Shown one piece after another: positions 505 through 57,401 of a stretch of DNA of 64,000 nt. The notes under the pieces were generated by a model that did no database searches, was not told the origin of the DNA, and worked only from the letters and a program-made list of their open reading frames with translations. A program made the position numbers and the translations under genes. Position 1 is the first letter of the stretch. Each line of letters opens with the position of its first letter. The stretch comes from Arenicellales bacterium (GTDB taxonomy: Bacteria; Pseudomonadota; Gammaproteobacteria; Arenicellales; Poriferihabitantaceae). The DNA is taken from positions 1,590,875-1,654,874 of the forward strand of contig OZ220708.1 of the NCBI GenBank assembly GCA_965116595.1, read 5' to 3'.

Positions 505-538
505 AAAATGATGATGTTATATAAGTCCGGAAGCTGAA

Positions 539-2491
539 ATGTCAAAAGCAACAGAGCAGGAAAAAAAGCCAACCTTCAGGAAATTCAGGGAGGGCGCATT
601 CAAGTGGGCAAACTATCAGGACGATATCTTTAATGAAGACACCTCCCATAAATGCCCCACTTACGTCAATCGCACGCCGCCGTGCCAGGGCAGTTGTCCT
701 TCGGGCGAGGATATTCGGGGGTGGTTGCAGATTATCCGTGGTATTGAAAAGCCGCCGGGCGATATGAGTTGGCAAGAGTATGCATTTCGCCGCTCAACCG
801 ATGCCAATCCATTCCCCTCGATGATGGGCCGGGTATGTCCCGCCCCTTGTGAAGCGGGCTGTAACCGCAATAATGTGGATGACTTTGTCGGCATCAATGC
901 AGTCGAACAATATATTGGTGATACCGCTTTTGATGAAAACTTCAGGTTTGAGACTGCGCCGCCTCTCAATCAACAACGTGTTGCCGTCATCGGCGGCGGG
1001 CCGGCCGGGCTGGCCGCAGCTTATCAGTTAAGGCGAAAAGGCTATGGCTCGGTGATTATCGAGAGGCAGGCGGAGCTTGGTGGTATGTTCCGTTACGGGA
1101 TTCCGGGATATCGAACGCCAAGGAGCGTACTTGATCATGAGATTCAGCGGATACTGGATCTCGACGGTATCGAGGTCAGATTGAATACCCGGGTGGGTAC
1201 TGACATCACTGTGCAGCAACTCGAAAGTGACTATGATGCAATCATCTGGGCGATTGGCTGCCAAAGCGGCAACGGTTTGCCTCTTGAAGGCTGGGATGAC
1301 GCACCGAATTGTGTCAGTGGCGTTGCCTTCCTGGAGGCTTTCAATAAAGGCCACATGAAGGTCACGGCTGAAAAGGTGGTCTGCGTCGGTGGCGGCGATA
1401 CTTCGATCGACGTGGTTTCGGTGGCTCGTCGATTGGGCAAGATAGTGAATATCAACCAGAAGGATCGTCCGGAGGAAGTCATTGGCGGGTACACGGCCCA
1501 TGATGCGGCGATGGTTGCACGCAGACAGGGTTGCGATGTGACCCTGACCGCGTTGTTCAAGCGCCAGAATATGACAGCATCGGAAATCGAGGTGGAAGAC
1601 GCCACTACGGAAGGTGTCAATATCATTGATGGCGTGATGCCGGTTGAAATTCTGATTGGTGACACTGGCAGAGCAGTTGGACTGAAGATGGCGCAGTGCG
1701 AAATGGACAATAAAGGTACGCCTGTGGCTGTCGAGGGTACGGAATTCGAGTTGGAAGCGGATTTGCTCGTCTCTGCAATCGGACAGGGCGGTGATCTCGA
1801 AGGTATCGAGGATCTGGGTAACCAGCGAAACCTGATCAATGCCGATCCTGGTTTCCGGGTGCCTGACCGGCCAGGACATTTTGTTGCGGGAGATATTGTT
1901 CGTCCCCATTTGTTGACCACTGCGATCGGTCAAGCCTCCATCGCTGCGACCAGCGCAATCGGTTATATGGCAGGGAACGACCCATCAAGGCGCCCCAGGG
2001 TGGATGTACATCACTTCAATTTGCTGAACAAATTGAACGAGCAGGGCCTGGAGGTGAGTGAATACGACAAAAGCCAGGTGCATGGTACCGACAGCGCCGG
2101 ATTTGCGGTACATAATTACGAGGATCGTTCCGCCAATGAAATCATTCCATCAGACGAATTGTTTCTTGCCCACTTCAAGCCTGAGGAACGAAATAAACGG
2201 ACCTCGGTGGTGCCCGATGCGGATCAGGTCCTGGGTCACTTCGAGGAACGTCACATGATCCTGAGTGAAGAACAGGCAGTGGCGGAGTCGAACCGATGTA
2301 TGAGTTGCGGCATGTGTTTTGAGTGCGATAATTGTGTGATCTACTGCCCGCAAATAGCTGTTTTCCGCGTCAAGAAAGACAAAGCCACGCTCGGTCGTTA
2401 TGTCGATACCGACTACAGCAAATGCATTGGCTGTCACATCTGTGCCGATGTCTGCCCTTCTGGATATATTGACATGGGTCTCGGAAAATAA
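539..2491 (+). CDS. dsrL: DsrL iron-sulfur flavoprotein (NAD(P)H:acceptor oxidoreductase of reverse Dsr)
   Basis: GltD-like N-terminal Cys cluster (PCQGSCP, GRVCPAPCE), GGGPAG FAD motif, C-terminal ferredoxin (CMSCGMCFECDNC, CIGCHICADVCP); dsr context. Confidence 0.95.
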   Translation: MSKATEQEKKPTFRKFREGAFKWANYQDDIFNEDTSHKCPTYVNRTPPCQGSCPSGEDIRGWLQIIRGIEKPPGDMSWQEYAFRRSTDANPFPSMMGRVCPAPCEAGCNRNNVDDFVGINAVEQYIGDTAFDENFRFETAPPLNQQRVAVIGGGPAGLAAAYQLRRKGYGSVIIERQAELGGMFRYGIPGYRTPRSVLDHEIQRILDLDGIEVRLNTRVGTDITVQQLESDYDAIIWAIGCQSGNGLPLEGWDDAPNCVSGVAFLEAFNKGHMKVTAEKVVCVGGGDTSIDVVSVARRLGKIVNINQKDRPEEVIGGYTAHDAAMVARRQGCDVTLTALFKRQNMTASEIEVEDATTEGVNIIDGVMPVEILIGDTGRAVGLKMAQCEMDNKGTPVAVEGTEFELEADLLVSAIGQGGDLEGIEDLGNQRNLINADPGFRVPDRPGHFVAGDIVRPHLLTTAIGQASIAATSAIGYMAGNDPSRRPRVDVHHFNLLNKLNEQGLEVSEYDKSQVHGTDSAGFAVHNYEDRSANEIIPSDELFLAHFKPEERNKRTSVVPDADQVLGHFEERHMILSEEQAVAESNRCMSCGMCFECDNCVIYCPQIAVFRVKKDKATLGRYVDTDYSKCIGCHICADVCPSGYIDMGLGK

Positions 2492-2512
2492 GATCAGGGC
2501 AGTGGACTGATC

Positions 2513-2914
2513 ATGATATTTTTCTTTCGAATGACAGGACTGGTTTTGATATCCGGCATGATCGGCCTTTCTCACTCATCCCGGTCTTATGATCAACTGC
2601 CGCAGTCAGTTCTGAATCTCCCGAAGGCGGTCAAGGGTGATAGCTGTGTTGCGCCGGTTGAAGAGATGCGACGGAACCACATGGAGATGCTTTTCCACCA
2701 GCGTGATCAAACCATGTATTTTGGTGAGCGTGATGCCGAACACAGCCTGATCGGGTGTCTGTCCTGTCATACCCAAAAAGATGCCGGGGGGGAATACATT
2801 CCGATCAATGCTCCCGGCCAGTTTTGTCAGGAATGCCATTCCTATACGGCAGTAAAGATGGACTGCTTTCAATGTCATGCCGCCACTCCTGTACGGACGA
2901 CTTCCAATAAATGA
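2513..2914 (+). CDS. dsrJ: DsrJ triheme cytochrome c
   Basis: Three CxxCH motifs (CLSCH, CQECH, CFQCH), RRNHM..L.HQRD..M motif. Confidence 0.93.
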   Translation: MIFFFRMTGLVLISGMIGLSHSSRSYDQLPQSVLNLPKAVKGDSCVAPVEEMRRNHMEMLFHQRDQTMYFGERDAEHSLIGCLSCHTQKDAGGEYIPINAPGQFCQECHSYTAVKMDCFQCHAATPVRTTSNK

Positions 2915-3651
2915 GTAATTTGAGCAAGCCCACCCACTCGCGCAGGACAGTCCTGAAACAGTCCGGTATCTTACTTGCCGGTCTGGTATCAGGAATAAAG
3001 CTGGTTGACCTTGCGATGGCGGCTACGAAGACCGAAGCAAGCGACCAGCTTGTCCGATGGGGCATGCTGGTGGATGCAACCCGGTGCGCGGATGGTTGTA
3101 CCGACTGTGTCGATGCCTGCAATACGGAACACGGACTGACCGGCAAAGGCCGCCCTCAGACCGATGCACAGTATATTCGTGTCGTTGATCTGAAAGATAA
3201 ATCCACCGGGCACACTACTTCACTGCCGTTGATGTGCCAGCATTGTGAAACCGCGCCGTGTGTCGATGTCTGCCCGACCGGGGCATCTTTTCGAAGAGAG
3301 GATGGGGTCGTGCTGGTGGATAAACACACTTGCATTGGCTGTCGCTATTGCATGTTGGCCTGTCCCTACAAAGCGCGTTCGTTCATTCACGAAAATCTGA
3401 CCGATCAGGTACCAACCACCCCCCGTGGCAAGGGTACGGTGGAGTCCTGCAATTTTTGCACTCATCGGGTGGATCGCGGTGGAACCCCAGCCTGCGTTGA
3501 AGCCTGTGACGCCAACGGTCACAAGGCCCTGGTGTTTGGTGATATGAATGACCCGGACAGCGAGTTGTCCAGGCAACTACGGGAAAAAACCTCTGTGCAG
3601 ATTCGTGCAGACCTCAACCTCAATACCGGGGTGCGTTACCATGGCGTTTGA
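2911..3651 (+). CDS. dsrO: DsrO periplasmic 4Fe-4S protein
   Basis: Tat-like SRRTVLK, CADGCTDC, CQHCETAPCVDVCP, CIGCRYCMLACPY, CNFC. Confidence 0.93.
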   Translation: MSNLSKPTHSRRTVLKQSGILLAGLVSGIKLVDLAMAATKTEASDQLVRWGMLVDATRCADGCTDCVDACNTEHGLTGKGRPQTDAQYIRVVDLKDKSTGHTTSLPLMCQHCETAPCVDVCPTGASFRREDGVVLVDKHTCIGCRYCMLACPYKARSFIHENLTDQVPTTPRGKGTVESCNFCTHRVDRGGTPACVEACDANGHKALVFGDMNDPDSELSRQLREKTSVQIRADLNLNTGVRYHGV

Positions 3652-3678
3652 CCTGGACCCCTGGGCCGCCACCTGAGC

Positions 3679-4863
3679 TTGATGAAGCGGATCACTTATA
3701 CCCCTCTGGCATATAATTGCAGGCTGTACTGGATGTTGCTGGTCGGTTTTGCGATCCTCACCTTGAACGGTTTGTATTTTGCATGGTTCATGGAACATCA
3801 TGGTCACTGGGTGACCGGTATGAACAATCAGATTGTCTGGGGGTTGCCGCATGTTTTTGCGATTTTCCTGATCGTCACCGCATCGGGTGTCCTGAACATC
3901 GCATCGCTGTCATCCGTATTTGGGAAACCCGCATACAAGGCATGGGCAAGATTGTCAGGACTGCTTGCGATTACCTTGCTGGCTGGAGGCCTGATGGTGC
4001 TGGTACTCGACCTCGGTCGGCCTGATCGCCTGATCATTGCCATGACCCACTACAACTTCAAATCAATTTTTGCCTGGAACATTTTTCTCTATACCGGGTT
4101 TGTGCTGGTTGTCGCGGTCTATCTGTGGATGATGTTCGAGCCGAAGATGGCGCAAAAAGTAAACCCGGTGGGTCGGGTCGCCTTTGTCTGGCGAATCATT
4201 CTGACCACCGGGACTGGATCAATCTTCGGGGTGATCATCGCCCGTCAAGCCTATGATACCGTCATCCTGGCCCCCTTGTTCATTGCCATGTCATTGAGTT
4301 TCGGCGCCGCATTTTTCGTAACTTACCTGTTTGCCTTGAGGCAACCCGTTTTTACCGGTGATTCAGACTTGCTCCTGAAATTACGGAAGCTGCTGATAAT
4401 ATTTATCTGTTCGGTCTTGCTGATCACAATGATTTTTCACATCACAAAAGCCTGGGACACGGCGACCCGGGATTACGAGCGGTTCATTTTGCTTGACGGC
4501 GGTCTGTTGACTGCATTGTTCTGGGCAGGGTCTATCGTGCTCGGTATGCTGGCGCCGATTTTGCTGCTTTCGGGTACGGGCGGCGCCGCTTCAAGCCGAA
4601 TACTGTCCGCTTGTGTCCTGCACATCCTGGGCGGCCTGGTCCATCTTTACGTGATCATTATCGGTGGGCAGGCGTATCCTTCTGTGCTTTTTCAGAACAA
4701 GGAAATTTCAAGCAGTTTTTATGATGGCGCTATTGCAGGTTATTGCCCTTCATTTGCTGAACTGTCGCTTGGCCTGGGCGGAATGTCGCTTGCAATTGCT
4801 GCAAGTTTGCTGGTGATCCGGGTTTTGCCCTTTTTACCTGAAAACAGCCCATCTCCCGATTAG
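3679..4863 (+). CDS. dsrP: DsrP NrfD/PsrC-family membrane subunit
   Basis: Polytopic membrane protein, WGLPH and DLGRPDR motifs, follows dsrO. Confidence 0.93.
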   Translation: MMKRITYTPLAYNCRLYWMLLVGFAILTLNGLYFAWFMEHHGHWVTGMNNQIVWGLPHVFAIFLIVTASGVLNIASLSSVFGKPAYKAWARLSGLLAITLLAGGLMVLVLDLGRPDRLIIAMTHYNFKSIFAWNIFLYTGFVLVVAVYLWMMFEPKMAQKVNPVGRVAFVWRIILTTGTGSIFGVIIARQAYDTVILAPLFIAMSLSFGAAFFVTYLFALRQPVFTGDSDLLLKLRKLLIIFICSVLLITMIFHITKAWDTATRDYERFILLDGGLLTALFWAGSIVLGMLAPILLLSGTGGAASSRILSACVLHILGGLVHLYVIIIGGQAYPSVLFQNKEISSSFYDGAIAGYCPSFAELSLGLGGMSLAIAASLLVIRVLPFLPENSPSPD

Positions 4864-4869
4864 CCCCTG

Positions 4870-6273
4870 ATGGCAACGCCAGATCAACACATGCCTGGCT
4901 TCTATCTTTCCGCTGCCCGAAAGTCTTCCGGCAAAACGATTGTGTCAATCGGCATTTGCGCTGCTCTTGTCGCGCGCAACAGAAAGGTTCAGCCATTCAA
5001 GAAAGGGCCTGATTACATAGACCCGTTGTGGTTGAGCCAGGCTGCCGGAACCCACTGTTATAACCTGGATTTCAATACGCAGAGTCCCGAGCAGATAGTC
5101 CGGTTTTTTTCGCGTCGATCCAGTGGTTCAGACATGGTTGTCATCGAGGGCAACAAGGGGCTGTATGATGGTGTTTCGATTGACGGGCATGACAGCAACG
5201 CTGCGCTGGCGAAACTGTTGGCGTTGCCCGTAGTATTGGCGCTTGATACCCGGGGAATCACCCGCGGTATTGCGCCGTTGCTCCTCGGATACCAGCAGTT
5301 TGATCCGGATATACACTTCAAGGGCGTTATCCTGAACAGGGTTGCTGGCTCCAGGCACGAACAAAAACTGAGAGCGAACATCGAGACGTATACCGATTTT
5401 CAAGTAATCGGCTCGATACCGAACGATGACCGCTTGTTGATCGATGAAAGGCATCTCGGACTTACGCCCAGTAACGAGGTCGACCGGACAGAGGTCAGGA
5501 TTGAGGCGATCAGGGATGTTATTGAAGACAGTGTGGATGTTGATCTTCTTGTTCCGGACAAATCAGGACCTCGACGGGCAGAGCATGAAAAGGCAGCCAA
5601 AAGTGTGATGTCCGGGCACAAGGTAACCGATGTGTGCATCGGCGTGCCGAAAGATCCTGCATTCGGTTTTTACTATGCGGATGATCTCCAGGCATTTTCA
5701 GACAATGGCGCCGAAATTGTCCATTTCAGTACAATAGAAGATGATGGCATACCCGAGGGACTTGATGGCTTGTTTATTGGCGGTGGTTTCCCGGAAATTT
5801 ATCTGGACGAACTCAGCAGTAATTCAGCCATGCGGCAATCAGTACTCGAATTCATCAATGCCGACGGTCCGGTCTATGCTGAATGCGGCGGGCTGATGTA
5901 TCTGGCAAATTCAATACGATGGAATGGCAGGCAGGTGGGCATGGTCGGCGCGTTGCCGGTTAATGTGGTGATGGAGGACAGGCCTGTGGGCCGTGGATAT
6001 GTCAAATTGCGTGAAACCGGTGATTCGATCTGGGGGGGGCTGGTGGCGGCGGATGAGACCATTCATGCCCATGAGTTTCACTATTCCAGAGTTGAAATAA
6101 CCGGAGACATCGATCATTTTGCTTTTGAGGTCAAGCGCGGATGGGGACTGGATGGGAAGCGTGACGGCATGGTTTGCAAAAACGTTCTGGCAGGTTATTC
6201 CCATTTGCGATCGACGGGTGGTGTAGACTGGGTATCGAGGTTTGTAGATTTTGTAAGACAATGCAAAACCTGA
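4870..6273 (+). CDS. dsrN: DsrN siroheme amidase (CbiA/CobB-like)
   Basis: KSSGKT, FKKGPDYIDP, IEGNKGLYDG, YAECGGLMYL, HAHEFHYS; dsr operon position. Confidence 0.9.
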   Translation: MATPDQHMPGFYLSAARKSSGKTIVSIGICAALVARNRKVQPFKKGPDYIDPLWLSQAAGTHCYNLDFNTQSPEQIVRFFSRRSSGSDMVVIEGNKGLYDGVSIDGHDSNAALAKLLALPVVLALDTRGITRGIAPLLLGYQQFDPDIHFKGVILNRVAGSRHEQKLRANIETYTDFQVIGSIPNDDRLLIDERHLGLTPSNEVDRTEVRIEAIRDVIEDSVDVDLLVPDKSGPRRAEHEKAAKSVMSGHKVTDVCIGVPKDPAFGFYYADDLQAFSDNGAEIVHFSTIEDDGIPEGLDGLFIGGGFPEIYLDELSSNSAMRQSVLEFINADGPVYAECGGLMYLANSIRWNGRQVGMVGALPVNVVMEDRPVGRGYVKLRETGDSIWGGLVAADETIHAHEFHYSRVEITGDIDHFAFEVKRGWGLDGKRDGMVCKNVLAGYSHLRSTGGVDWVSRFVDFVRQCKT

Positions 6274-39850: not shown

Positions 39851-39854
39851 TCGG

Positions 39855-45384: not shown

Positions 45385-46371
45385 TCAGCGTAGAAAGGAG
45401 GCGGGGAGCACGGAAATTTTGCTGTCAACAGATTTGCGGGGCGATGTTGTCTTCCTCTTGTGCGTTTGCGGGTGCCAATTCGTAGCCAACTCTATAAATG
45501 CTGCACAAGCCGGGTTGATATAGCCGTATCGGTGCCAGATCAGGCTGACGGCGTGTTGCGGCAAATTGACCTCCAGTTTTATTGAATGCAGATTACTCCG
45601 ATTATCGATAATGCTCTTCGGCAGGATGGTAGCAAGCCTGCCGGACTCGACAAGTTCGAGAATGACACTGACCGAGTTGGTTTCGATCGCGATCTGCGGG
45701 GTGAGCGAATGCTTTTTGCAGTATTCATCGATGTGCTGGCGCAGGGCAAAGTCCCGGTTGAGCAACACCATTGAAAGCGGGGAGTCAGATTGCGGCGTCT
45801 TGCCCTGGGCAAACTTCGCAAGTGGATGTTTGTCGCCGACGGCGAGGAACAGCGACTCGTTGAACATGATTCGGGTTTCGAATTCCTGGACACGCACATT
45901 ATTTGCATCGGGTTGGGTGAACGCAATGCCGATGTCGATCGTGTCTTCAGTAACGGACTGTTCGAGGAATTCCTGAGACATTTCGAAGGTCGACAGGATA
46001 ATTCCGGGATGCTGATGGTGGAAGCTGTCGATCAGGTCATAAGTCAGGTGATCGGTTATCGGCGTCCAACCAACCCTTAACGTACCCCGGCTCAAATCAC
46101 GGACATCATTGACCGCACGTGCACCTGCGATCATCTCGGCACGCGCACGCTTGGCGAACCCATGAAAGATTTCACCTGCATCGGTCAGCCGCACGGTACG
46201 CCCGGGTCGGATTAGCAGTCGGGTCTGGAGCAAACCCTCCAGTTGCTTGATCTGTTGCGATAGCGAGGGCTGGGAAACGTGCAGGACCTCCGCTGCCCGG
46301 GAGAAACTGCCATATTCAACGATGGTAAGGAAATACTCCAATGCCCTCGGAAATATGATTTTTCGGTACAT
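45385..46371 (-). CDS. LysR-family regulator, CynR-like
   Basis: GSFSRAAEVLHVSQPSLSQQIKQLE; divergent from scnBAC. Confidence 0.9.
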   Translation of the reverse strand: MYRKIIFPRALEYFLTIVEYGSFSRAAEVLHVSQPSLSQQIKQLEGLLQTRLLIRPGRTVRLTDAGEIFHGFAKRARAEMIAGARAVNDVRDLSRGTLRVGWTPITDHLTYDLIDSFHHQHPGIILSTFEMSQEFLEQSVTEDTIDIGIAFTQPDANNVRVQEFETRIMFNESLFLAVGDKHPLAKFAQGKTPQSDSPLSMVLLNRDFALRQHIDEYCKKHSLTPQIAIETNSVSVILELVESGRLATILPKSIIDNRSNLHSIKLEVNLPQHAVSLIWHRYGYINPACAAFIELATNWHPQTHKRKTTSPRKSVDSKISVLPASFLR

Positions 46372-46695: not shown

Positions 46696-47127
46696 ATGCC
46701 TTCATCCACCCGAGATAGAATCATGCGGCATCTGGATATTGTCAAACAATTCCAGCCTGCCCTGCATGGCGAAACCCACGCTCCCTCTCCCGATATGGTT
46801 GATGACGACCACTATCGCGCCTACACGCGCTCGTCACATGACGTCGGTGGTGAACCGGATATCCCGATTCCCTGGGAAGAGAAGGAAGAGGAGATCTGGG
46901 AACACAATACTTTTGTCACTTGCGAGGTGCTGGCCTGGCGGGGTGTCTGGAATGCCGAGGAGCGGCGGCGGCGTCAAAATGTTGACGTCGGCCAGACGAT
47001 TTACCTCGGCTTGCCGTACTACGGCCGCTGGCTGATGACTGCGGCCCTGATCCTGGTCGACAAGCAATACGCTACCCTGAGCGAGCTTCAGGACAAGATT
47101 CACGAAGTGAGGCAACGTTATGAGTAA
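46696..47127 (+). CDS. scnB: Thiocyanate hydrolase beta subunit
   Basis: HDVGGE, EKEEEIWE.NTF.TCE.LAWRGVW.AEERRR.QN.DVGQT.YLG.PYYGRW, as recalled for Thiobacillus ScnB. Confidence 0.92.
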   Translation: MPSSTRDRIMRHLDIVKQFQPALHGETHAPSPDMVDDDHYRAYTRSSHDVGGEPDIPIPWEEKEEEIWEHNTFVTCEVLAWRGVWNAEERRRRQNVDVGQTIYLGLPYYGRWLMTAALILVDKQYATLSELQDKIHEVRQRYE

Positions 47128-47491
47128 TAAACCTGTTTACGATCGCGAACATCACGTCAAGAAAGCCACGGGGATCGGCGATCCCCAGTGTTTTGCCGGG
47201 GAAGCTGCGCCGGCCAGGTTCAAGGTGGGAGACCAGGTTCGGGTCCGTGACCTGCCTGATCTGTTCTATACCCGGACGCAAACCTACTTGCGAGGAACGG
47301 AGTGCACCGTTTCTGCGCTTGTCTATGAAAGCCCGGCCGCCGAAGACGAGGCCTGGGATAATACCGACAAGGCCGAATGGTTTTACAGCCTCGTCTTCAA
47401 GCAGAGCGATCTTTGGTCCGATTATCCGAAGACCTTTGGCGGCGATACGCTGGAGACTGAATTACCGGAGCGTTGGCTGGAGTCGGCCTAG
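47120..47491 (+). CDS. scnA: Thiocyanate hydrolase alpha subunit
   Basis: ATGIGDPQCF, F.VGD.VR..DLPDLFYTRT, YESPAAEDEA, DTLETE.PER.LE. Confidence 0.92.
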   Translation: MSNKPVYDREHHVKKATGIGDPQCFAGEAAPARFKVGDQVRVRDLPDLFYTRTQTYLRGTECTVSALVYESPAAEDEAWDNTDKAEWFYSLVFKQSDLWSDYPKTFGGDTLETELPERWLESA

Positions 47492-47552: not shown

Positions 47553-48248
47553 ATGTCTGACGATCACAAGCATGCGCCGATGGTTGATGAAGTAAGCGAA
47601 TTCGAAATTCTGGAAATCGCGGTTCGCGAACTTGCCATTGAAAAGGGCCTGTTTACCCAAGAGGATCACAATGCCTGGACCGAGTATATGCATACCCTCG
47701 GGCCGCTGCCGGCGGCACGCCTTGTGGCCAAGGCCTGGCTGGATCCTGAATTCAAAAAACTCGCGGTAGAGGATGGCGTCAAGGCCAGCCTTGAAGTCGG
47801 GATCGATTGGATCAAGACTATGCCGACACAGTTCGGTACCCCAAGTGACTATTGCAGTTTCCGCGTCATGGAAGATACGCCGACCCTGAAGCATGTCGTA
47901 GTCTGCACTTTGTGCTCATGCTATCCGCGCCCGATACTGGGCCAGTCTCCCGAGTGGTATCGTACGCCGAATTATCGTCGGCGCCTTGTACGCTGGCCCC
48001 GGCAGGTGTTATCGGAGTTCGGTTTGCAGTTATCGGAAGACGTGGAAGTCCGGGTGGTTGACTCCAATCAGAAATCCCGCTTCACCGTGCTGCCGGTTCG
48101 TCCGGAAGGGACTGAGGGCTGGACCGAGGATCAATTAACCGAAATCGTCACGCGTGATTGCCTGATCGGAGTAGCCTTGCCGAAACCGGGCAAGACCGCG
48201 AACGATCCTCGTCCGATCCGCAAGGCGCTGAAACCCTACAACCACTAG
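47553..48248 (+). CDS. scnC: Thiocyanate hydrolase gamma subunit (Co-binding)
   Basis: VCTLCSCYPRP: Co-type Cys motif with Arg where nitrile hydratases have Trp (YPWP). Confidence 0.95.
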   Translation: MSDDHKHAPMVDEVSEFEILEIAVRELAIEKGLFTQEDHNAWTEYMHTLGPLPAARLVAKAWLDPEFKKLAVEDGVKASLEVGIDWIKTMPTQFGTPSDYCSFRVMEDTPTLKHVVVCTLCSCYPRPILGQSPEWYRTPNYRRRLVRWPRQVLSEFGLQLSEDVEVRVVDSNQKSRFTVLPVRPEGTEGWTEDQLTEIVTRDCLIGVALPKPGKTANDPRPIRKALKPYNH

Positions 48249-48266: not shown

Positions 48267-48674
48267 ATGACCTTGATCAATCCCGAAAAGATTGCGCTTG
48301 ACGAGGAAATGCAGGCGCGCGATCTTGAAAACTCGCCGATCGACTTGCTGGAAGAGATCAGGCGGGATGGTAGTCATTGGGAAGACCTGGCATCGAAATG
48401 GGGAGTGGACAACCCGGACCCGCCCTGGAAAATATGGCTGGAAGCCACGTGCGAAGTCCTGGCAGATAAAAATTGTGCATTGCCAGCGCTGGAACGCCGG
48501 TGGGAGGAAGACGATCTCAGCGAGGAGCTGTACAAAGATGTTCCTTTTCCGGAACGGCAATTGTTGGCCCTGGCACATTCGATGATTCGACGCGGGTTGA
48601 TCGACGAGAAGGAACTGGCGACGCACAAAAAGGTTGTAGAAAAGCGACTGCACATGGTGGACCAGATAACTTAA
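48267..48674 (+). CDS. SCNase activator/metallochaperone (P15K-like)
   Basis: NHase-beta-like tail (PFPERQLLALAHSMIRRGLIDE.EL), about 15 kDa, directly after scnC. Confidence 0.75.
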   Translation: MTLINPEKIALDEEMQARDLENSPIDLLEEIRRDGSHWEDLASKWGVDNPDPPWKIWLEATCEVLADKNCALPALERRWEEDDLSEELYKDVPFPERQLLALAHSMIRRGLIDEKELATHKKVVEKRLHMVDQIT

Positions 48675-48707: not shown

Positions 48708-49613
48708 TTGAATATTTCCGCAAGCGCCAGTGGTATCCACATCAGTGTCGAAGATCTCTCGCATCGATACACGCATAAATCGCCTTTTACATTCGAAAAG
48801 GTCAGCTTCAAGGCGGAACCGGGCGAAGCCCTGACCATAATCGGCCGGTCCGGATGTGGCAAGTCAACGCTGCTTCAGGTTATCGCGGGATTGTTGCCTT
48901 ATTCCATAGGCAAGGTTCAACTTGAGAATGAAGATGTCGTTGAACCCTCCTCGCGGTGGGTCATGATGTTTCAGGCTCCCCATTTGTTTCCCTGGATGAA
49001 CGTTCGTCAAAACGTCGGCGTGGGCCTGCGTTTTGCGAACTGGCCGAAGGAACGGATTACGGATCGTGTCGATGAGGCGCTTGAACTCGTCCACCTGGAA
49101 GAGTTTGCCAACAAGAACACTCAGGATCTGTCGGGCGGTCAGCAACAGCGTGTTGCGCTGGCGCGATCACTGGTCATGGAACCGGAGATGCTGCTCCTGG
49201 ATGAGCCTTTCTCGGCGCTGGATGCCTTCACCCGCGCCAGTCTCCAGCATGATGTACGCCAGATCGCCAAGCAACTGTGTATCAATGTTGTCCTGGTTAC
49301 ACACGATATCGACGAAGCCATCCTGATGGCTGACCGCGCCTTGGTGATGGCAGGTTCTCCGGGCAAGATCGTACATGATTTCAAGGTGGATCTCCCGGAC
49401 CCGCGTGAGCGCCGCGATCCGAAAGTGCAGGAAATGCGTACCAGGCTGATGGGGGTTTTCCACGATGCTACGCATGAGCAGGGCGAGGATGAAGGTGATT
49501 TACCGATAGTAGACGATGAACCGATAGTAACCGACTCGACAAAACTTGAGTTTTCGGGCCGCGAGTTTAGTCGGTCTAACTGGACCGAGGTGGCATCCGG
49601 CCGCCCAATTTGA
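48708..49613 (+). CDS. NitT/TauT-family ABC ATP-binding protein
   Basis: GRSGCGKST, LSGGQQQR, LLLDEPFSALD, THDIDEA. Confidence 0.95.
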   Translation: MNISASASGIHISVEDLSHRYTHKSPFTFEKVSFKAEPGEALTIIGRSGCGKSTLLQVIAGLLPYSIGKVQLENEDVVEPSSRWVMMFQAPHLFPWMNVRQNVGVGLRFANWPKERITDRVDEALELVHLEEFANKNTQDLSGGQQQRVALARSLVMEPEMLLLDEPFSALDAFTRASLQHDVRQIAKQLCINVVLVTHDIDEAILMADRALVMAGSPGKIVHDFKVDLPDPRERRDPKVQEMRTRLMGVFHDATHEQGEDEGDLPIVDDEPIVTDSTKLEFSGREFSRSNWTEVASGRPI

Positions 49614-49631
49614 CACTGTGGAGGAATCAGA

Positions 49632-50924
49632 ATGACTGATATGAAAAAAATGTACACGAAGCACGGTGATGGTATTCAAGATCCAAATCTCGTAATCGAG
49701 TGTGACCCCAACTTCAAGGGTATCCTTGGGTCGTCGGTCAATCGACGCGAACTGCTGCAACTGGGTGCTGCCGCAACTGCGGCCGGATTTACCTTACCAT
49801 CCTCTAGCCTGGCGCAGCAGACCAACTGGGATCCGGTGGTCAAGATCGGATACATTCCAATCACGGACTCGGCCGCGTTACTGGTTGCCCATGAATTGGG
49901 ATACCTGAAAGAAGAGGGTATCGATTCGGTCAGGCCGACGCTTATTCGAGGGTGGTCTCCGCTGGTAGAAGCCTTCGCCTCCTACCGCTTTAACCTGACT
50001 CACATGTTGATCCCGATTCCGATCTGGATGAGGTACAACAACAATTACCCAGTCAAAATCACCGCCTGGGACCACACCAACGGTTCTGCAATCGTGGTGG
50101 GCAAGAATACCGGTATCAACTCGCCGGCCGATTTCGGCGGCAAGCAGTTTGCAATGCCATACTGGTACTCGATCCACAACATTGTATCGCAACGTCTGTT
50201 ACGTGATGCCGGGATTACGCCAGTCATTCGTCCGCAGGATGCTGAATTGGGGCCGAATGAGTGTAACTTTCTTGTGCTGCCGCCGCCGTCAATGCCGCCG
50301 GCACTGGCTGCCGGCACGATTGACGGCTACTGCGTAGCCGAACCCTTCAACGCCCTGGGTGAACTCAAGGCAGGAGGCAAGGTGCTTCGGTTCACCGGTG
50401 ACGTCTGGAAAGGCCACCCATGCTGTGTGGTCGTCATGCACGAAGAGAACACGATGGATCCAGACCGGGCGGCATGGGCGCAGGGTATCCACAATGCCGT
50501 GGTGAGGGCACAGATCACGTTGGCCGAAAATCGTGAGGAAATGGCCGTGATGTTGTCACGTGACGGTCAGAAGTACCTGCCATTCCCGAAGGAGGTGATT
50601 GAGCGCGCCATGCTGTTCTACGATCCCGCCTACTACAACAATCCGCTTGCAATCAAGCATCCGGAGTGGGGTATGGACCGGATCAACTTCCAGGCCTGGC
50701 CGTATCGCTCGGCGACCGAACTTGTGGTCGATGATCTGAAGCAGACTCTCGTTACCGGTGATGATGCATTTCTGGCTGGCCTGACACCAAAAATGGTGGC
50801 CGACGATCTGGTCAATTACGAGTTCATCAAGAATTCACTCGAAGCCAACCCGAAATGGCGTAACGATGTGAGTGTTCCGAAAGGGGATGATCCCTATACG
50901 CGGACGGAAGTGGTTGAACTGTAG
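49632..50924 (+). CDS. NrtA/CynA-like ABC substrate-binding protein (Tat)
   Basis: NRRELLQ Tat motif, IGYIPITD, NGSAI, VAEPFN, W.GHPCC. Confidence 0.9.
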   Translation: MTDMKKMYTKHGDGIQDPNLVIECDPNFKGILGSSVNRRELLQLGAAATAAGFTLPSSSLAQQTNWDPVVKIGYIPITDSAALLVAHELGYLKEEGIDSVRPTLIRGWSPLVEAFASYRFNLTHMLIPIPIWMRYNNNYPVKITAWDHTNGSAIVVGKNTGINSPADFGGKQFAMPYWYSIHNIVSQRLLRDAGITPVIRPQDAELGPNECNFLVLPPPSMPPALAAGTIDGYCVAEPFNALGELKAGGKVLRFTGDVWKGHPCCVVVMHEENTMDPDRAAWAQGIHNAVVRAQITLAENREEMAVMLSRDGQKYLPFPKEVIERAMLFYDPAYYNNPLAIKHPEWGMDRINFQAWPYRSATELVVDDLKQTLVTGDDAFLAGLTPKMVADDLVNYEFIKNSLEANPKWRNDVSVPKGDDPYTRTEVVEL

Positions 50925-50964
50925 GCGCTGTCAGATCGCGTACATATAGATCCTGAATCTGGAT

Positions 50965-51777
50965 GTGACCATGGATCCAAGCCAGCCTAAGTTCTGGATC
51001 AAAAAGTACGGCCTCAAGTTATTTAACTGGGTGGCCGGACTTCTGATCCTGTTTTCGCTCTGGTGGTTGGGCGGTTTCCTGATCCATCTGAATCCCGACA
51101 CAACCCATTTTTCGGACTTCGGGCCAATCCCGACCCTCCAGGCTTTCCCCGAGCTCTGGGGAGATGGAACGATACTGGATGCAGTCATGTCCAGTGGCTA
51201 TCGGCTCGGTATCGGGTTGTTGATCGCCATCGCCTGCGGCATTCCGATCGGGATTCTAATGGGTCGCAGTCGTACGTTTCGTGAACTGAGTAATTCGCCA
51301 TTTCAGTTGCTGCGTATGATCAGCCCGCTGTCCTGGGAGCCGATTGCTGTTATCGTTTTCGTGACCTGGAACCAGGCGATCATATTCCTGATTGCGGTGG
51401 CCTCAGTCTGGCCGGTTGCCTTCGCAACAGCGGCAGGCCTGGCGAAGGTGGATCCGGCCTGGTTCAAAGTTGCCAGAAACCTCGGCGCCAGTCCCTGGCA
51501 CCGCCTGACGCTGATCATCATTCCGGCGATCACGTTCGATATGTTGACGGGAATCCGCGCTGCCCTCGGCGTCGCCTGGATCGTTCTGGTTCCGGCTGAG
51601 TTTCTCGGCGTAACTTCAGGTCTGGGCTATTCGATCGCGGATGCGCGTGAAACGCTGTCCTACGACTATCTGACCGCGATGGTATTAACAATCGGTTGCA
51701 TCGGCTACATTCTGGACAGTTCCTGTGTGCTGGCAATCAAGCGGTTCAGTTGGCACAGGGGTGATGAATCATCCTGA
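50965..51777 (+). CDS. NitT/TauT-family ABC permease
   Basis: PIGILMG, LR.ISPLSW.P, VARNLGAS, W..LVPAE.LG..SGLGY. Confidence 0.93.
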   Translation: MTMDPSQPKFWIKKYGLKLFNWVAGLLILFSLWWLGGFLIHLNPDTTHFSDFGPIPTLQAFPELWGDGTILDAVMSSGYRLGIGLLIAIACGIPIGILMGRSRTFRELSNSPFQLLRMISPLSWEPIAVIVFVTWNQAIIFLIAVASVWPVAFATAAGLAKVDPAWFKVARNLGASPWHRLTLIIIPAITFDMLTGIRAALGVAWIVLVPAEFLGVTSGLGYSIADARETLSYDYLTAMVLTIGCIGYILDSSCVLAIKRFSWHRGDESS

Positions 51778-51838
51778 CCCGACTTCAATGTTTTTTAATA
51801 ATCTAATCATATAACGAGTTAAATAGGAGAGAAGTAAA

Positions 51839-52024
51839 ATGAGTACTTTAGCAACGACATCGGCAATTAGCGTACCCACTATCGGCACTCGCGTGCTGAG
51901 TCAGCTGGTAGCTGCATTAATTCTGGGTTCAGTCATTCTCTATGGGGCGGGATTTGCGAATATGGGAGTCGCGCATAGTGCTGCCCATGACGCCCGTCAT
52001 TCACAGGGCTTCCCTTGCCATTAG
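51839..52024 (+). CDS. cbtB: Cobalt transporter subunit CbtB
   Basis: Single TM then HSAAHDARHSQGFPCH. Confidence 0.92.
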   Translation: MSTLATTSAISVPTIGTRVLSQLVAALILGSVILYGAGFANMGVAHSAAHDARHSQGFPCH

Positions 52025-52049
52025 TAGTCGCTGATTCCAGGTTTGTGCT

Positions 52050-52811
52050 GTGGTATTTCGGAAAGTCGTCTACTATTCGATTCTGGTTGGGATCGTAGCC
52101 GGCCTCGTCCTGACCGCGGCCCAACGTTTGCAGGTTGTGCCGATCATCTTTACTGCGGAGGTATACGAAAGTACGTCGATAGACACCGGATCAGGTGGGG
52201 CTGACGACCACGCACACTGGTCGCCGGAGGCAGGCATGCGGACTGTGTTAACCGCGTTTTCCAACGTGCTGACAGCTATTGGATACGCACTGATACTGCT
52301 GTCCGTGATGCTGGCTGTACAAACCTGGTCCCCAGGCAAGCCAAACCGACTTACCTGGCAGAGGGCGCTTGGTTGGAGCCTGGCAGGATATGCCATATTC
52401 TGGTTAGTGCCATCACTTGGTTTGCCACCGGAAATTCCTCTGCAAAATGCCGCCGAACTGCAAGATCGTCAGGTCTGGTGGGTAATCTGTGTCGTCTGTA
52501 CGGCTGCCGGGCTTGGTGGACTTGCTTTCGCGTCGACACCCTGGCGATGGCTGGCGCCACTGGTCATCGCGGTCCCTTACCTGATCGGCGCACCGCATCC
52601 GGAAGGTCCGATGTTTATTGGCCAGACCCCGGAATTCGCAGGGGCACTTGAGGCGCTTGCTGCTGAATTTTTCTATGCCACGGCCATCGTGAATGCCGTG
52701 TTCTGGCTGGTTCTTGGTTCGCTGGTTACCTGGTCCGGTGTCCGGATCAGCCGGAGTATGGCAACAGCGGACAAGGATTCTTCCAAACCCGCTACCACAA
52801 CCTCGGCTTAA
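52050..52811 (+). CDS. cbtA: Cobalt transporter subunit CbtA
   Basis: P.I..AEVYE, PSLGLPPEIP, RQVWW, GAPHP. Confidence 0.92.
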   Translation: MVFRKVVYYSILVGIVAGLVLTAAQRLQVVPIIFTAEVYESTSIDTGSGGADDHAHWSPEAGMRTVLTAFSNVLTAIGYALILLSVMLAVQTWSPGKPNRLTWQRALGWSLAGYAIFWLVPSLGLPPEIPLQNAAELQDRQVWWVICVVCTAAGLGGLAFASTPWRWLAPLVIAVPYLIGAPHPEGPMFIGQTPEFAGALEALAAEFFYATAIVNAVFWLVLGSLVTWSGVRISRSMATADKDSSKPATTTSA

Positions 52812-52825
52812 CTCAAGGAGTCAAA

Positions 52826-53218
52826 GTGACCAATAAGATCAGTATCATCTGTTTGTCGGGTGAACACGAAAAGCTGCAAATGGCGGCCATGGTGGCCTCG
52901 GTTGGAGCTGCATCAGGAGATGAAGTCACGGTTTTCTTTTCTATGAACTCGATGAAGTACTTTATCAAGGGCAATGAGGACACTGTCCCGGCCGAGGGTG
53001 AATTCGGCGCTACTGCCCTGAATCGTGAGGGTGTGCCCCCCTTTCGGGATTTGTTCCAACAGGCAGTAGAGCTTGGTGATGCGGCCTTGCTTCCCTGTTC
53101 GATGGCGATGGACCTGCTGGAATTGAAGGATGGTGATCTGATGAACGAGTTCGGACCGTCTACCGGGTTGACCAAATTCTTGAGCGATGCAGAGGGATCG
53201 CAAATTATAACTTTTTAA
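52826..53218 (+). CDS. DsrE/DsrF-like (DsrE2/E3-type) sulfur carrier
   Basis: V.VFFSM, PCSMAMDL conserved Cys. Confidence 0.82.
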   Translation: MTNKISIICLSGEHEKLQMAAMVASVGAASGDEVTVFFSMNSMKYFIKGNEDTVPAEGEFGATALNREGVPPFRDLFQQAVELGDAALLPCSMAMDLLELKDGDLMNEFGPSTGLTKFLSDAEGSQIITF

Positions 53219-53248
53219 TGGTAGAATTTCTGTGTAAGGAGGGATGAC

Positions 53249-53479
53249 ATGAGTGAGCATATCATCATTGATGCAAAGAACACCTATTGCCCGGGCCCAT
53301 TGATGGAGTTGATCCGGTGCGTGAAACAGGCGGAGGTCGGCGACGTACTCGAGTTGCTTTCGACCGACAGCGGCACTGCTAATGACGTTCCCGAGTGGGT
53401 CGCCAAGATCGGCCATGAAATTTTGAGCTCGGAGCAAATCGATGACGTCTGGCACGTCACGGTGAAAAAGGTCAAGTAA
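53249..53479 (+). CDS. TusA-family sulfurtransferase
   Basis: IDA...CPGP.M, LSTD.G..NDVP.W. Confidence 0.92.
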   Translation: MSEHIIIDAKNTYCPGPLMELIRCVKQAEVGDVLELLSTDSGTANDVPEWVAKIGHEILSSEQIDDVWHVTVKKVK

Positions 53480-53520
53480 CGCCCGTTCCAGGTCGCTGCG
53501 CTGAAATACGGAAGGTTGAA

Positions 53521-54654
53521 ATGAAAATTCTGGTAGTGGGTGGCGGTACCGGTGGTACGATCACCGCCAACAATGTGGCCCGACGCCTGGCGTCGGAAAT
53601 AAGTGCAGGCAAGGCGGGTATCACGATGCTGTCCGCATCCGACCGCCACATGTATCAACCCGGCTTGCTGTACGTTGCTTTCGGGCAGATGATGCCTGAT
53701 GAACTGTATCGCGATCAGGCGAGCCTGCTTGAAAGTTCCATAGACTTTCATGTCGATCCGGCTGAAGATTTTGATCTTGACAATAACCGGGTGACGACGC
53801 AGAGCGGCCAGGTTCATGACTACGACGTACTTGTTATCGCAACCGGTTCGCGCATCATGCCGAAGATCATTCCCGGCCTCAACGAGGGCGCCGAAACCTT
53901 TTATACCGAGGAAGGGGCGATCAAGATGTTCAAGGCCCTGCGGGAATTTGAGGGCGGCAAGGTTGCTACCATCGTCGGTGTACCTCACAAGTGTCCTATT
54001 GCACCGGTGGAGGTAACTTTTTCGCTGCACGATTATTTCAAGTCCCGCGGCATTCGCGACAAGGTCGAAATCAAGTACCATTATCCGATCAACCGGATTC
54101 ACAGTATCGAAAATGTGGCTGCCTGGGCGGAGCCCGAGTTTCGACGCATGGGTGTCGAGTACGAAACCCTTTTCAATGTCGAGGAAGTCGACGTAGAAAA
54201 CAAGATTGTCAAGAGCCTCGAAGGTACCGAATATCAGTACGATCTGCTGATTTCGATTCCCGAACATAACGGGGTTGAAGCCATTATCAACAGCGACCTG
54301 GGGCAGGACGGCTGGATACCGACTGATCGGCACAAGCTGACGATGACGGGCTATGACAATGTCTATGTCGTGGGCGACACCACCGATCTGCCGGTCAGCA
54401 AGACAGGGTCAGCAGCTCACTTTCAGGCTGAAGTCATTGCAGAGAATATTGCCTCGATGATCAAGATAGGCACACCGGTCACAGAGTACAACGGCAAGGT
54501 GTACTGCTTTATAGAAGCCGGTTACGATAAGGCAACCTACGCAATGTTCAACTATGACTTCCCGCCCGATTTGAAAGAACCGAACAAATCCATGCACTGG
54601 TTCAAGGTCAGTTATAACAAGATGTACTGGACCAGTGTTCGCGGGCTACTGTAA
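53521..54654 (+). CDS. Sulfide:quinone oxidoreductase-like flavoprotein (short type)
   Basis: VVGGGTGG, KCPIAP, VGD...P.SK.G..AH, YCF; the two Cys lie at SQR-like positions. Confidence 0.8.
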   Translation: MKILVVGGGTGGTITANNVARRLASEISAGKAGITMLSASDRHMYQPGLLYVAFGQMMPDELYRDQASLLESSIDFHVDPAEDFDLDNNRVTTQSGQVHDYDVLVIATGSRIMPKIIPGLNEGAETFYTEEGAIKMFKALREFEGGKVATIVGVPHKCPIAPVEVTFSLHDYFKSRGIRDKVEIKYHYPINRIHSIENVAAWAEPEFRRMGVEYETLFNVEEVDVENKIVKSLEGTEYQYDLLISIPEHNGVEAIINSDLGQDGWIPTDRHKLTMTGYDNVYVVGDTTDLPVSKTGSAAHFQAEVIAENIASMIKIGTPVTEYNGKVYCFIEAGYDKATYAMFNYDFPPDLKEPNKSMHWFKVSYNKMYWTSVRGLL

Positions 54655-54665
54655 GGCAGACATCA

Positions 54666-55070
54666 ATGACCTCTGGACCAGAAAACGAAAACAGCAACAG
54701 CCTGGAAAAAAGTCTTGAAGGGTTGACCGAGATCGGTACCGTCATCGCTGCAGCCAAGGATGCGCTTAACGACGACATGGTTGCCAGAATGTCTTCGGCG
54801 TTTTCCGAGGGCGTCATGTTGCTTGATCGCCTGACCCGGAACCAGGCCCTCGTCCGGTTGCTGCAAAATCTTGATCGGCCGGAGAATCAGGCATTGCTGA
54901 ATAGCCTTTCGGATGCGCTTGGCAAGACCAGTATCGAGATGTCTTCTTCGTCGCCGGCAAAGGGAGGGTTCGGTAACCTGGTCAAGCAATTGAACGACCC
55001 GGATACGCAGGAAGGTCTGCGTATACTCGCCATGTTTGGTAAGCACCTGGGGGCGGGTATACGTAAATAA
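54666..55070 (+). CDS. DUF1641-family protein
   Basis: Helical; GGFGNLVKQLNDPDTQEGL motif; usual SQR neighbour. Confidence 0.75.
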   Translation: MTSGPENENSNSLEKSLEGLTEIGTVIAAAKDALNDDMVARMSSAFSEGVMLLDRLTRNQALVRLLQNLDRPENQALLNSLSDALGKTSIEMSSSSPAKGGFGNLVKQLNDPDTQEGLRILAMFGKHLGAGIRK

Positions 55071-55107
55071 ATGGGGGTTCCTGATCACTTCCAGCGCCGC
55101 GGGAGTT

Positions 55108-56573: not shown

Positions 56574-57401
56574 TTGATGATCAGTGTAGACCCCCATTGC
56601 CGATCCCATTCGCTGGATGACGAAACCTCCGGGCGCCTGATCAGCCGGCTGGAAAGCCGTGCGCAGGATGACGTGTTCACCCGACTGTTCGACCGCTATG
56701 CCGACACCCTGGAATTTTCCGACGATACACTCACGCTGGAGGTGGGGTGCGGAACCGGGGCCATGATTCGCTCGCTGGTAAACAAACCGAATTTCCGCGG
56801 CCGCATTGTCGGTGTCGATCAGAGTCCGGCTTTCATCGATGCAGCGTCCGGCTTCGCCGAAAATGCCGGTATCACGGATCGGGTCGAATTTCATGTCGGC
56901 GACGCGCATAATCTTGATAGTGAAGACGGAAAATTCGATCTGGTCATCGCCCATACTGTGATCAGCCATGTTGTTGATCCGCAATCGGTTGTCAACGAGT
57001 GCGCCCGAGCCTTACGTCCTGGAGGAATGCTTGTTGTTTTCGATGGTGACTACTCGTCGCTGACCTACGGGTTTCCTGACGATCCGGAACTGGGACGGCG
57101 TATGGATCGTGCACTTGCCGAAACCACCTTCCACAATCCTTTGGTAATGCGGGATCTGATCAAGCTGTTGCCCGAAAGTTGTTTTGACATCGAAGATACC
57201 CTTGCCGAGGTCGTTTCGGAAATTGGGGAGGCCAGCTACTTCAAGTCCTTTGCCGACACTTACGCGCCCATGGTGGCGAGTGGTGACATGATGGACGCCG
57301 GTGAGGTGGAGCGTTGGGTCAATGGGCAGGCCGAACTGATTGCCAGCCGACAGTTTTTTGCCTCATGCAACTACTACACCTATCGGTCACGGCGCGTCTG
57401 A
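56574..57401 (+). CDS. Class I SAM methyltransferase (UbiE-like)
   Basis: LEVGCGTG, GVDQS, VGDAH, LRPGG. Confidence 0.9.
   Translation: MMISVDPHCRSHSLDDETSGRLISRLESRAQDDVFTRLFDRYADTLEFSDDTLTLEVGCGTGAMIRSLVNKPNFRGRIVGVDQSPAFIDAASGFAENAGITDRVEFHVGDAHNLDSEDGKFDLVIAHTVISHVVDPQSVVNECARALRPGGMLVVFDGDYSSLTYGFPDDPELGRRMDRALAETTFHNPLVMRDLIKLLPESCFDIEDTLAEVVSEIGEASYFKSFADTYAPMVASGDMMDAGEVERWVNGQAELIASRQFFASCNYYTYRSRRV

Follow-up and report, generated by a model that had tools for sequence, protein, structure and literature searches.

Gene content of the scn locus

The window analysed here is a whole stretch of 64,000 nucleotides (nt) from an Arenicellales bacterium (assembly GCA_965116595.1, contig OZ220708.1, positions 1,590,875-1,654,874). 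It includes an scn locus, which encodes a predicted thiocyanate hydrolase (ScnBAC), followed by a cassette of four genes (52826-55070). The cassette encodes, in this order, a DsrE-like protein, a TusA protein, a flavoprotein resembling sulfide:quinone oxidoreductases (SQR) and a DUF1641 protein. All four genes are on the + strand and are separated by gaps of 11-41 nt. They probably form a self-contained unit of sulfide oxidation and sulfur relay, recruited to the 3' end of the scn operon, that would feed both quinone and the Dsr system.

A previous sequence-only reading gave the same four identities at the same coordinates, and both agree exactly with the Pfam matches found on each open reading frame (ORF). 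It also described this relay as following scn. The cassette does lie downstream of scn on the same strand, but the two are not directly adjacent: six genes of the same strand (a 135-aa ORF, the ABC importer genes, CbtB and CbtA) are found between scnC and the cassette.

The identity of the hydrolase is given by several features. ScnC (231 aa) scores above the equivalog cutoff of TIGR03887, the NCBIfam model of the thiocyanate hydrolase gamma subunit (379.8 bits vs 291.45), and fails the nitrile hydratase (NHase) alpha model (204 bits vs a cutoff of 249.85). Its metal site, VVCTLCSCYP, fits the C(S/T)LCSC motif. The NHase beta subunit is split, NHase_beta_N and NHase_beta_C being encoded by separate, overlapping ORFs, as in thiocyanate hydrolases. 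ScnBAC is predicted to be a thiocyanate hydrolase that would convert thiocyanate (SCN-) to carbonyl sulfide (COS) and ammonia (NH3).

Table 1. Features of the window discussed in the text, sorted by group (cassette, other genes of the scn locus, other genes)
Feature	Position	Strand	Basis
Putative DsrE2B-like sulfur carrier (Cys9, Cys91), 130 aa	52826..53218	+	Pfam DrsE_2 50.3 bits, cutoff 25
Putative TusA sulfur carrier (Cys14 in CPGP motif), 76 aa	53249..53479	+	Pfam TusA 68.2 bits
Predicted type III-like SQR, 377 aa, C-terminally short	53521..54654	+	Pfam Pyr_redox_2 62.8 bits
DUF1641 protein, 134 aa, no cysteine	54666..55070	+	Pfam PF07849 27.5 bits, cutoff 21
LysR-type regulator	45385..46371	-	divergent from scnB; Pfam HTH_1 + LysR_substrate
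scnB, predicted thiocyanate hydrolase beta (N-terminal half of NHase beta subunit)	46696..47127	+	Pfam NHase_beta_N 61.3 bits
scnA, predicted thiocyanate hydrolase alpha (C-terminal half of NHase beta subunit)	47120..47491	+	Pfam NHase_beta_C 71.7 bits
scnC, predicted thiocyanate hydrolase gamma, catalytic	47553..48248	+	NCBIfam TIGR03887; Pfam NHase_alpha
135-aa ORF, activator-like by position only	48267..48674	+	conserved place after scnC
NitT/TauT-type ABC importer (ATPase, NMT1_2 binding protein, permease)	48708..51777	+	Pfam ABC_tran, NMT1_2, BPD_transp_1
CbtB + CbtA	51839..52811	+	Pfam CbtB 63.8 bits, CbtA 130.7 bits
Methyltransferase, scn-neighbourhood gene	56574..57401	+	homology to Thiohalophilus scn-locus methyltransferase
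dsrK (3' end), dsrL, dsrJ, dsrO, dsrP, dsrN	19..6273	+	gene order + domain content

Proteins of the cassette

The flavoprotein. Its N-terminus has an FAD-binding GxGxxG Rossmann fold (MKILVVGGGTGGT). Its matches in the PDB are human SQOR (6e-36), the Acidianus ambivalens SQR (9e-29) and the Aquifex SQR (9e-19). Cys158 (HKCPIAP) and Cys329 (VYCF) align with the cysteines of the human KCAGAP and TSCP motifs, taken here to be Cys201 and Cys379; both are invariant in sets of 32 and 54 homologues. The best NCBIfam model is NF049943, type III SQR, whose profile positions 2-351 of 406 are covered at 322.8 bits, below its cutoff of 525; this model describes a selenoprotein subtype and is the only type III SQR model of the library. 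Searches of structures with the AlphaFold model return SQRs first (Foldseek, template modelling scores 0.61-0.66), and also flavocytochrome c sulfide dehydrogenases. The alignment behind the model (predicted local distance difference test, pLDDT, 65) is shallow, its sequences having at least 79% identity: the fold is supported, the C-terminus is unresolved and the model does not decide on a membrane anchor. The flavoprotein is predicted to be a type III-like SQR. Its assignment as NDH-2 or as a CoA-disulfide reductase was rejected, the corresponding matches (E from 1e-4 to 1e-9) being compared with 1e-36 for SQR and the cysteine pair being taken into account.

The flavoprotein is short: 377 aa vs 409-437 aa in solved SQRs, its C-terminus being 30-60 residues shorter. 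In SQRs, amphipathic helices at the C-terminus serve access to membrane and quinone; in the alignment to human SQOR, some 30 residues at the human C-terminus are left unmatched. The final 20 residues or so of the flavoprotein (tail HWFK..YN.MYW..RGLL) hardly vary and are modelled at low confidence. The SQRs linked to scn are 63-94% identical to the protein of the window and form a discrete, tight clade; the next full-length relatives, found in a search of 1.84 billion representative proteins, are at most 49% identical and have about 379 aa.

The DUF1641 protein. This is the least conserved of the four proteins (28-81% identity). Its gene lies directly 3' of the SQR gene not only in the window but also in each of the 49 scn loci with an SQR gene and in 5/5 stand-alone cassettes (see below). 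A single-sequence search of the PDB with the window protein gave no match. The profile of the scn-linked DUF1641 proteins matches those of stand-alone cassettes (hhalign 98.6%, E = 1.2e-15). The latter are longer and match YjlC/Ncp (1e-7), ForE1 (0.02) and HucM (0.07); the link to YjlC/Ncp is solid because these longer homologues bridge it. On the flavoprotein side, YjlD is a weak PDB match of the SQR, and the YjlC-YjlD model is among the Foldseek results. Correlations of pairwise identities (mirror-tree) are moderate among the gene pairs tested (r = 0.36-0.70) and are taken as a hint only; the highest is that of the SQR-DUF1641 pair (r = 0.70).

DUF1641 proteins are scaffolds that bind or deliver quinone and tie soluble oxidoreductases to the membrane (ForE, PMC8808070; Ncp/YjlC, PMC13524794). 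HucM is a further protein of this kind. In Ignicoccus, a DUF1641 gene and the gene of an adjacent flavoprotein rise together (PMC3149612). From the invariable adjacency of the two genes, the short C-terminus of the SQR, the top correlation and the membership of the DUF1641 family, we infer a partnership of both proteins, possibly as a complex analogous to Ndh-Ncp. A search of the literature mentioning DUF1641 found no paper that links this family to SQR. The sequence-only reading had named the family correctly and had missed its implication for quinone coupling.

The sulfur carriers. The solved structure nearest to the DsrE-like protein is 2QS7, DsrE2B of S. solfataricus (Saccharolobus), with E = 8e-10 and the cysteine aligned. 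Among 52 sequences, Cys91 is kept in all (100%) and Cys9 in 96%. The protein is below the NCBIfam DsrE2 equivalog cutoff (23.8 bits vs 210) and, judged on these matches, is better described as DsrE2B-like than as DsrE2. In TusA (YCPGP), Cys14 is invariant in 54 sequences.

Distribution of the cassette

The scn loci were collected by a scan for ScnC, with one genome per species. This gave 80 loci with 10-kb flanks, which were annotated with the proteins of the window and with E. coli references. Uncultured Gammaproteobacteria have the closest ScnC proteins, at 97% identity and, in a genome labelled Ca. Poriferihabitaceae, at 96%. The set also contains Thiobacillus thioparus DSM 505, Thiohalophilus, Ca. 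Thiodiazotropha and Halochromatium. Cassettes were counted in the 60 loci from other genomes that have a split beta subunit and at least 8.5 kb of downstream sequence. The full cassette follows the transporter, with order and strand kept, in 46 of these; three of its four genes are found in 3 and none in 11. The cassette-bearing loci belong to Gamma-, Beta- and Alphaproteobacteria and to Gemmatimonas, and include those of T. thioparus DSM 505 and Thiohalophilus.

The cassette-less loci are mostly from gammaproteobacterial metagenome-assembled genomes (MAGs; L005-L007, L061-L062, L065-L066, L068-L069), of which several are assembled into contigs or chromosomes of 1.3-2.4 Mb; L017 and L047 carry other labels. 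In the MAG loci just named and in L063, which has only 4.9 kb 3' of scnC, the cassette was not found, and cynS and CbtAB are upstream. An extra ORF of about 120 aa separates the activator-like gene from that of the ABC ATPase in L005 and L066 (the two inspected) and in L017.

The 135-aa ORF is kept after scnC in the 11 cassette-less proteobacterial scnBAC loci. It is also kept in actinobacterial scnB/scnC loci, where no scnA match was found. These loci bear on the idea that the flavoprotein is reductive: a persulfide, polysulfide or CoA-disulfide reductase serving sulfur assimilation or maturation, for example of the oxidised cysteines of the metal site of the hydrolase. The distant matches of the flavoprotein to CoA-disulfide reductase and to NAD-dependent persulfide reductase would agree with such a function, but they are far weaker (E around 1e-4 vs 1e-36 for SQR), and the partner belongs to a quinone-coupling family and is not an NAD(P)H module. 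As the scnBAC loci without the cassette and the actinobacterial scnB/scnC loci keep the 135-aa ORF, the cassette is not needed for maturation. This function is the least probable of those considered here.

Conversely, the cassette is found without scn. The genomic context was examined for five of the nearest full-length SQR relatives. The order DrsE_2-TusA-SQR (376-379 aa)-PF07849, with no NHase genes nearby, is found in a Nitrospirota-type contig (P0156), Inmirania thermothiophila, Persephonella and Magnetospirillum. In the fifth locus, from a MAG (P0322), only TusA-SQR-DUF1641 is found, and the neighbourhood is likewise free of NHase genes. The SQR of Persephonella shares 52% identity with that of the window, C-terminal tail included. 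In Methylacidiphilum fumariolicum SolV, an operon of a type III SQR, TusA and DsrE2 is up 1.7-1.8-fold in sulfide-adapted cells (PMC10205796). Since the cassette occurs free of scn and the Methylacidiphilum operon responds to hydrogen sulfide (H2S), sulfide, rather than COS, is most likely the substrate by analogy, and we infer that the scn operon recruited at its 3' end a sulfide-handling unit that already existed.

Eight further contigs (L083-L090), from a Chromatiaceae population, were read from precomputed Pfam matches. They carry cynS, the methyltransferase gene, scnBAC, DrsE_2, TusA and the flavoprotein gene. Downstream of scnC, these contigs lack the greater part of the ABC importer and have a transposase fragment (HTH_Tnp_1) in that place; DsrE-TusA-SQR-DUF1641 is intact.

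Transcription

RNA data are contigs of four environmental metatranscriptomes, from a related strain that is about 90-95% identical to the window. Coverage by these contigs begins at 46676, 20 nt 5' of the scnB start, and runs to about 55192, shortly after the stop codon of the DUF1641 gene. Single contigs connect cbtA and dsrE (52541-53010, 52681-53064), and dsrE, tusA and sqr (53047-53991). Depth is zero over the LysR gene and over 55416-56283; in the related strain, the contigs stop before the stretch with a 189-aa ORF and a glutathione S-transferase gene. This coverage fits a single transcription unit from scnB to DUF1641.

The contigs of three independent metatranscriptomes all end at 46676. 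This position could be the 5' end of the transcript, or the point at which the related strain diverges. Promoter and terminator scans of 46300-57600 performed no better than on shuffled sequence, so operon boundaries were not drawn from them. Among the papers searched, no proteomic or transcriptomic report was found that thiocyanate induces the cassette in Thiobacillus.

COS hydrolase and cyanase

The sequence-only reading had stated that neither a beta-carbonic anhydrase (beta-CA) nor a cyanase is encoded in the window, and every search agrees. Pfam scans of its approximately 63 likely genes found no Pro_CA, Carb_anhydrase, gamma-CA-type or Cyanate_lyase domain. The best match of E. coli CynT, Can and CynS to the window, by six-frame tblastn and phmmer, has E = 0.18, and no CxDxR...HxxC zinc motif occurs in any of its frames. 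Within 10 kb of scn, a beta-CA is found in 0/80 loci, that of T. thioparus (L037) included; precomputed Pfam matches show no Pro_CA in L083-L090. Seven regular-expression matches to the beta-CA zinc motif in scn loci were discarded: all are in shadow frames or inside other genes.

Since no scn locus has a linked beta-CA, its absence from the window is normal and is not a clue. COS hydrolysis is never operon-encoded (0/80 loci), so the fate of COS depends on an unlinked enzyme. A clade-D beta-CA that hydrolyses COS with high activity (COSase) was purified separately from T. thioparus THI115 (PMC5745022). Of the routes proposed in the sequence-only reading, that through an unlinked carbonic anhydrase is the best supported, by the linkage count and by this enzyme. 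An unlinked COS step matters for the genome-based prediction of COS release from thiocyanate-degrading communities and bioreactors.

Cyanase is a different case. cynS is found within 10 kb of scn in 39/55 loci, and neither in the window nor in its nearest relatives. The local search that found none in the window did detect cynS elsewhere, and Pfam agreed in L083-L090. The absence of cyanase near scn is a real lineage difference. It says nothing on the fate of COS, as the COS pathway does not need cyanase.

COS could also mostly escape as a gas, the cassette serving general sulfide metabolism and owing its place after scn to hitch-hiking. No COS-hydrolysing gene was found in the window, and the cassette is generic, being found stand-alone. 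However, the linkage is kept across classes with the same order and strand (49/60 loci), the RNA contigs continue from cbtA into dsrE, and the loss of sulfur would waste the energy source of a sulfur oxidiser with a reverse Dsr (rDsr) system. To our knowledge, carbonic anhydrases are near-universal. This reading is very unlikely.

Another route dispenses with both carbonic anhydrase and free H2S: a thiolate of DsrE, TusA or SQR would attack the COS released by ScnBAC and yield a protein persulfide. The cassette is linked in 49/60 loci and beta-CA in 0/80, the scn-linked SQRs are a clade of their own, and the DsrE2B-type carrier is without a known substrate (PMC4175335). Against this, the same cassette occurs in genomes without scn and a related operon answers to H2S (PMC10205796); the SQR retains the standard sulfide-oxidising cysteine pair; T. 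thioparus, whose locus L037 has the cassette, possesses its dedicated and highly active COSase (PMC5745022); and the conversion of COS sulfur to a persulfide requires an oxidation without known chemistry. Direct capture of COS, also put forward in the sequence-only reading, is weakened by the first three of these points relating to genomes, operon and cysteines, and has barely any chance of being right. The same very low expectation attaches to the wider idea that the scn-linked cassette is specialised for sulfur taken from COS or straight from the hydrolase, without carbonic anhydrase or free H2S. Two versions can be drawn: cleavage of COS catalysed by a thiolate of DsrE2B, TusA or SQR, or a channelled ScnBAC-SQR-DUF1641 assembly. 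If true, either would explain the scn loci devoid of carbonic anhydrase, the presence of the cassette in 49/60 loci and the tight SQR clade.

Proposed pathway

The reading favoured here, a recruited unit acting on sulfide, gives the following pathway. Thiocyanate would be imported by the ABC system. The cobalt enzyme ScnBAC would convert it in the cytoplasm to COS and ammonia, and an enzyme of the carbonic anhydrase type, encoded elsewhere, would hydrolyse COS to H2S and CO2. The SQR would oxidise this sulfide on its Cys158/Cys329 pair and FAD. Electrons would pass to quinone through the DUF1641 protein. By analogy with Ncp, ForE and HucM, this protein may act as a scaffold for the C-terminally short flavoprotein and open the way to membrane quinone for it. 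Sulfane sulfur would go to TusA Cys14 and DsrE Cys91, then to the Dsr system of the same window; the presence of these dsr genes makes it the obvious destination for TusA-bound sulfur.

Several points weigh against this pathway. For the step from COS to H2S, neither the window nor any of the 80 scn loci offers a candidate gene. The SQR does not reach the cutoff of the sole type III model available. The direct match of the profile of 25 scn-linked DUF1641 proteins to YjlC in the PDB is weak (E = 0.013). The AlphaFold monomer of the DUF1641 protein is all-helical and of low confidence (pLDDT 55), and its Foldseek search is meaningless. With this weak match and this poor model, the SQR-DUF1641 complex is drawn from homology and adjacency only. 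The SQR of Rhodobacter is exported without a signal peptide, so a missing signal peptide is no proof of a cytoplasmic site. The archaeal DsrE2B prototype gave no reaction with six sulfur compounds in vitro (PMC4175335), which leaves the role of DsrE in the cassette unproven. Probable non-Dsr organisms (Gemmatimonas, L039) also carry the cassette at their scn loci, so a link to Dsr cannot hold in general. Finally, the RNA comes from a relative, and depth on assembler contigs reflects expression poorly.

The fate of the sulfane sulfur is what separates this pathway from mere detoxification. In the latter case, the cassette would clear the cytoplasmic sulfide derived from thiocyanate and so protect oxidases and the cobalt enzyme. 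Zero-valent sulfur or polysulfide would be deposited, and TusA and DsrE would be scavengers with no dedicated feed to Dsr. The homologous Methylacidiphilum operon has been interpreted as detoxifying H2S, with elemental sulfur as the product (PMC10205796). Organisms that are not known to be sulfur lithotrophs (Gemmatimonas, L039; Hyphomicrobiales, L027) have the cassette at their scn loci too, and stand-alone cassettes are found in diverse non-lithotrophic contexts. However, the host of the window carries dsrKLJOPN. In rDsr oxidisers, it is TusA that hands sulfur to DsrEFH and DsrC. The electrons given to quinone are conserved either way, the two proposals differing only in where the sulfane sulfur goes. 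Detoxification alone is unlikely, though less so than the other alternatives.

Other genes of the scn locus and of the window

The LysR gene is similarly placed in most of the surveyed loci. Pfam and NCBIfam scans gave no family match for the 135-aa ORF, a homologue of which is found after scnC in nearly all 80 loci. The ABC importer, also conserved after scn across the surveyed loci, is presumed to take up thiocyanate. CbtB and CbtA are predicted to import cobalt for the Co-dependent hydrolase.

Along its full length, the methyltransferase shares 51% identity with that encoded between cynS and scnB in Thiohalophilus (L055). A methyltransferase gene is adjacent to scn in many loci; in the window, it is relocated 3' of the cassette. 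The 189-aa ORF, without family match, and the glutathione S-transferase gene (55036-56204) are found 3' of the cassette only in the closest relatives (L003, L004). Further downstream (57881-63635) are a Tubulin_2-like gene on the - strand, then genes of an AmiC-like sensor, an AmiR/ANTAR antiterminator and an UrtA/UrtB-like ABC transporter. A similar Peripla_BP_6/BPD_transp_2 transporter is found 3' of the scn cluster in the Chromatiaceae population (L083).

The dsr region at the start of the window has the following Pfam domains: CCG; Pyr_redox_2 + Fer4_20 + Fer4; Fer4_11; NrfD; CbiA + GATase_3. The putative dsrJ is an ORF with several CxxCH motifs (2513-2914), without Pfam match, that is named from its position and sequence alone. 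Judging from these genes, the host is an rDsr sulfur oxidiser.

The stretch just upstream of the scn locus (30000-45000) has a patchy composition, GC content being 0.44 at 32-34 kb vs 0.52-0.60 around. It may be an island; RelE-like, HepT-like and DUF4143 ATPase genes are found in it, along with several ORFs that match no family. One of its ORFs (34960-36327) has a Phd/YefM antitoxin domain (residues 18-68) in frame with a Rieske and ring-hydroxylating alpha-subunit oxygenase; the fusion is an odd one, or else ORF calling has joined two genes.

Comparison with known systems

The layout of scn followed by the cassette is already published and is not new. The scn order was given by Berben et al. 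2017 for Thiobacillus thioparus DSM 505 and Thioalkalivibrio thiocyanodenitrificans (PMC5328954). As in the window, these operons have scnBAC, a hypothetical gene, a NitT/TauT ABC transporter, a 'peroxiredoxin (DsrE/F-like)' gene, tusA, sqr and a last hypothetical gene. This order was reproduced in the T. thioparus locus L037, with homologues of all four cassette proteins. Unlike these operons, the window has CbtAB between the transporter and the cassette, is devoid of cynS and carries the methyltransferase gene downstream instead of upstream. Its host is an uncultured gammaproteobacterium, with a Ca. Poriferihabitaceae MAG among the closest relatives. The last 'hypothetical' gene of the published operons encodes a DUF1641 protein, a family whose role was recognised in 2021-2026. 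With the layout published and the absences ordinary, what is worth retaining is the SQR-DUF1641 hypothesis and the survey counts.

The COSase of T. thioparus THI115 (PMC5745022) is the enzyme expected to join ScnBAC to SQR; a homologue was found neither in the window nor within 10 kb of scn in the 80 loci. The operon of M. fumariolicum SolV (PMC10205796) resembles the cassette in its type III SQR, TusA-like carrier and peroxiredoxin/DsrE2-family protein, with a proposed oxidation of H2S with quinone. It differs from the cassette in that it has no thiocyanate link and that no DUF1641 partner is mentioned; this comparison is by description, not by sequence. Known TusA/DsrE relays (rhd-tusA-dsrE2; archaeal dsrE3A-dsrE2B-tusA; PMC4175335, PMC11094781) likewise combine a TusA with a CPxP cysteine and a DsrE-family protein. 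In contrast to these, the cassette of the window is without rhodanese, DsrE3 and Hdr genes, and the sulfur donor would be the SQR.

The closest parallels of the SQR-DUF1641 pair are Ndh-Ncp (PMC13524794), ForCE (PMC8808070) and Huc-HucM, in which the gene of a soluble oxidoreductase without an anchor likewise adjoins a DUF1641 gene. The Ndh of Ndh-Ncp belongs, as does SQR, to the superfamily of flavoproteins with two dinucleotide-binding domains. The pair of the window is a predicted complex; an oligomeric hydrophobic tube that binds quinone and touches the membrane would be the mark of such a partner. Its DUF1641 protein has 134 aa vs 140-250 aa for the partners in these systems, and its host belongs to the Proteobacteria; reports of Ndh-Ncp come from Bacillota only. 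Sulfide, and not NADH, formate or H2, would be the substrate. Type III SQRs are the least understood class of SQR and are suggested here to work as SQR-DUF1641 complexes. If true, this architecture would be, as far as the literature search showed, the first of its kind found in sulfur metabolism and in Proteobacteria.

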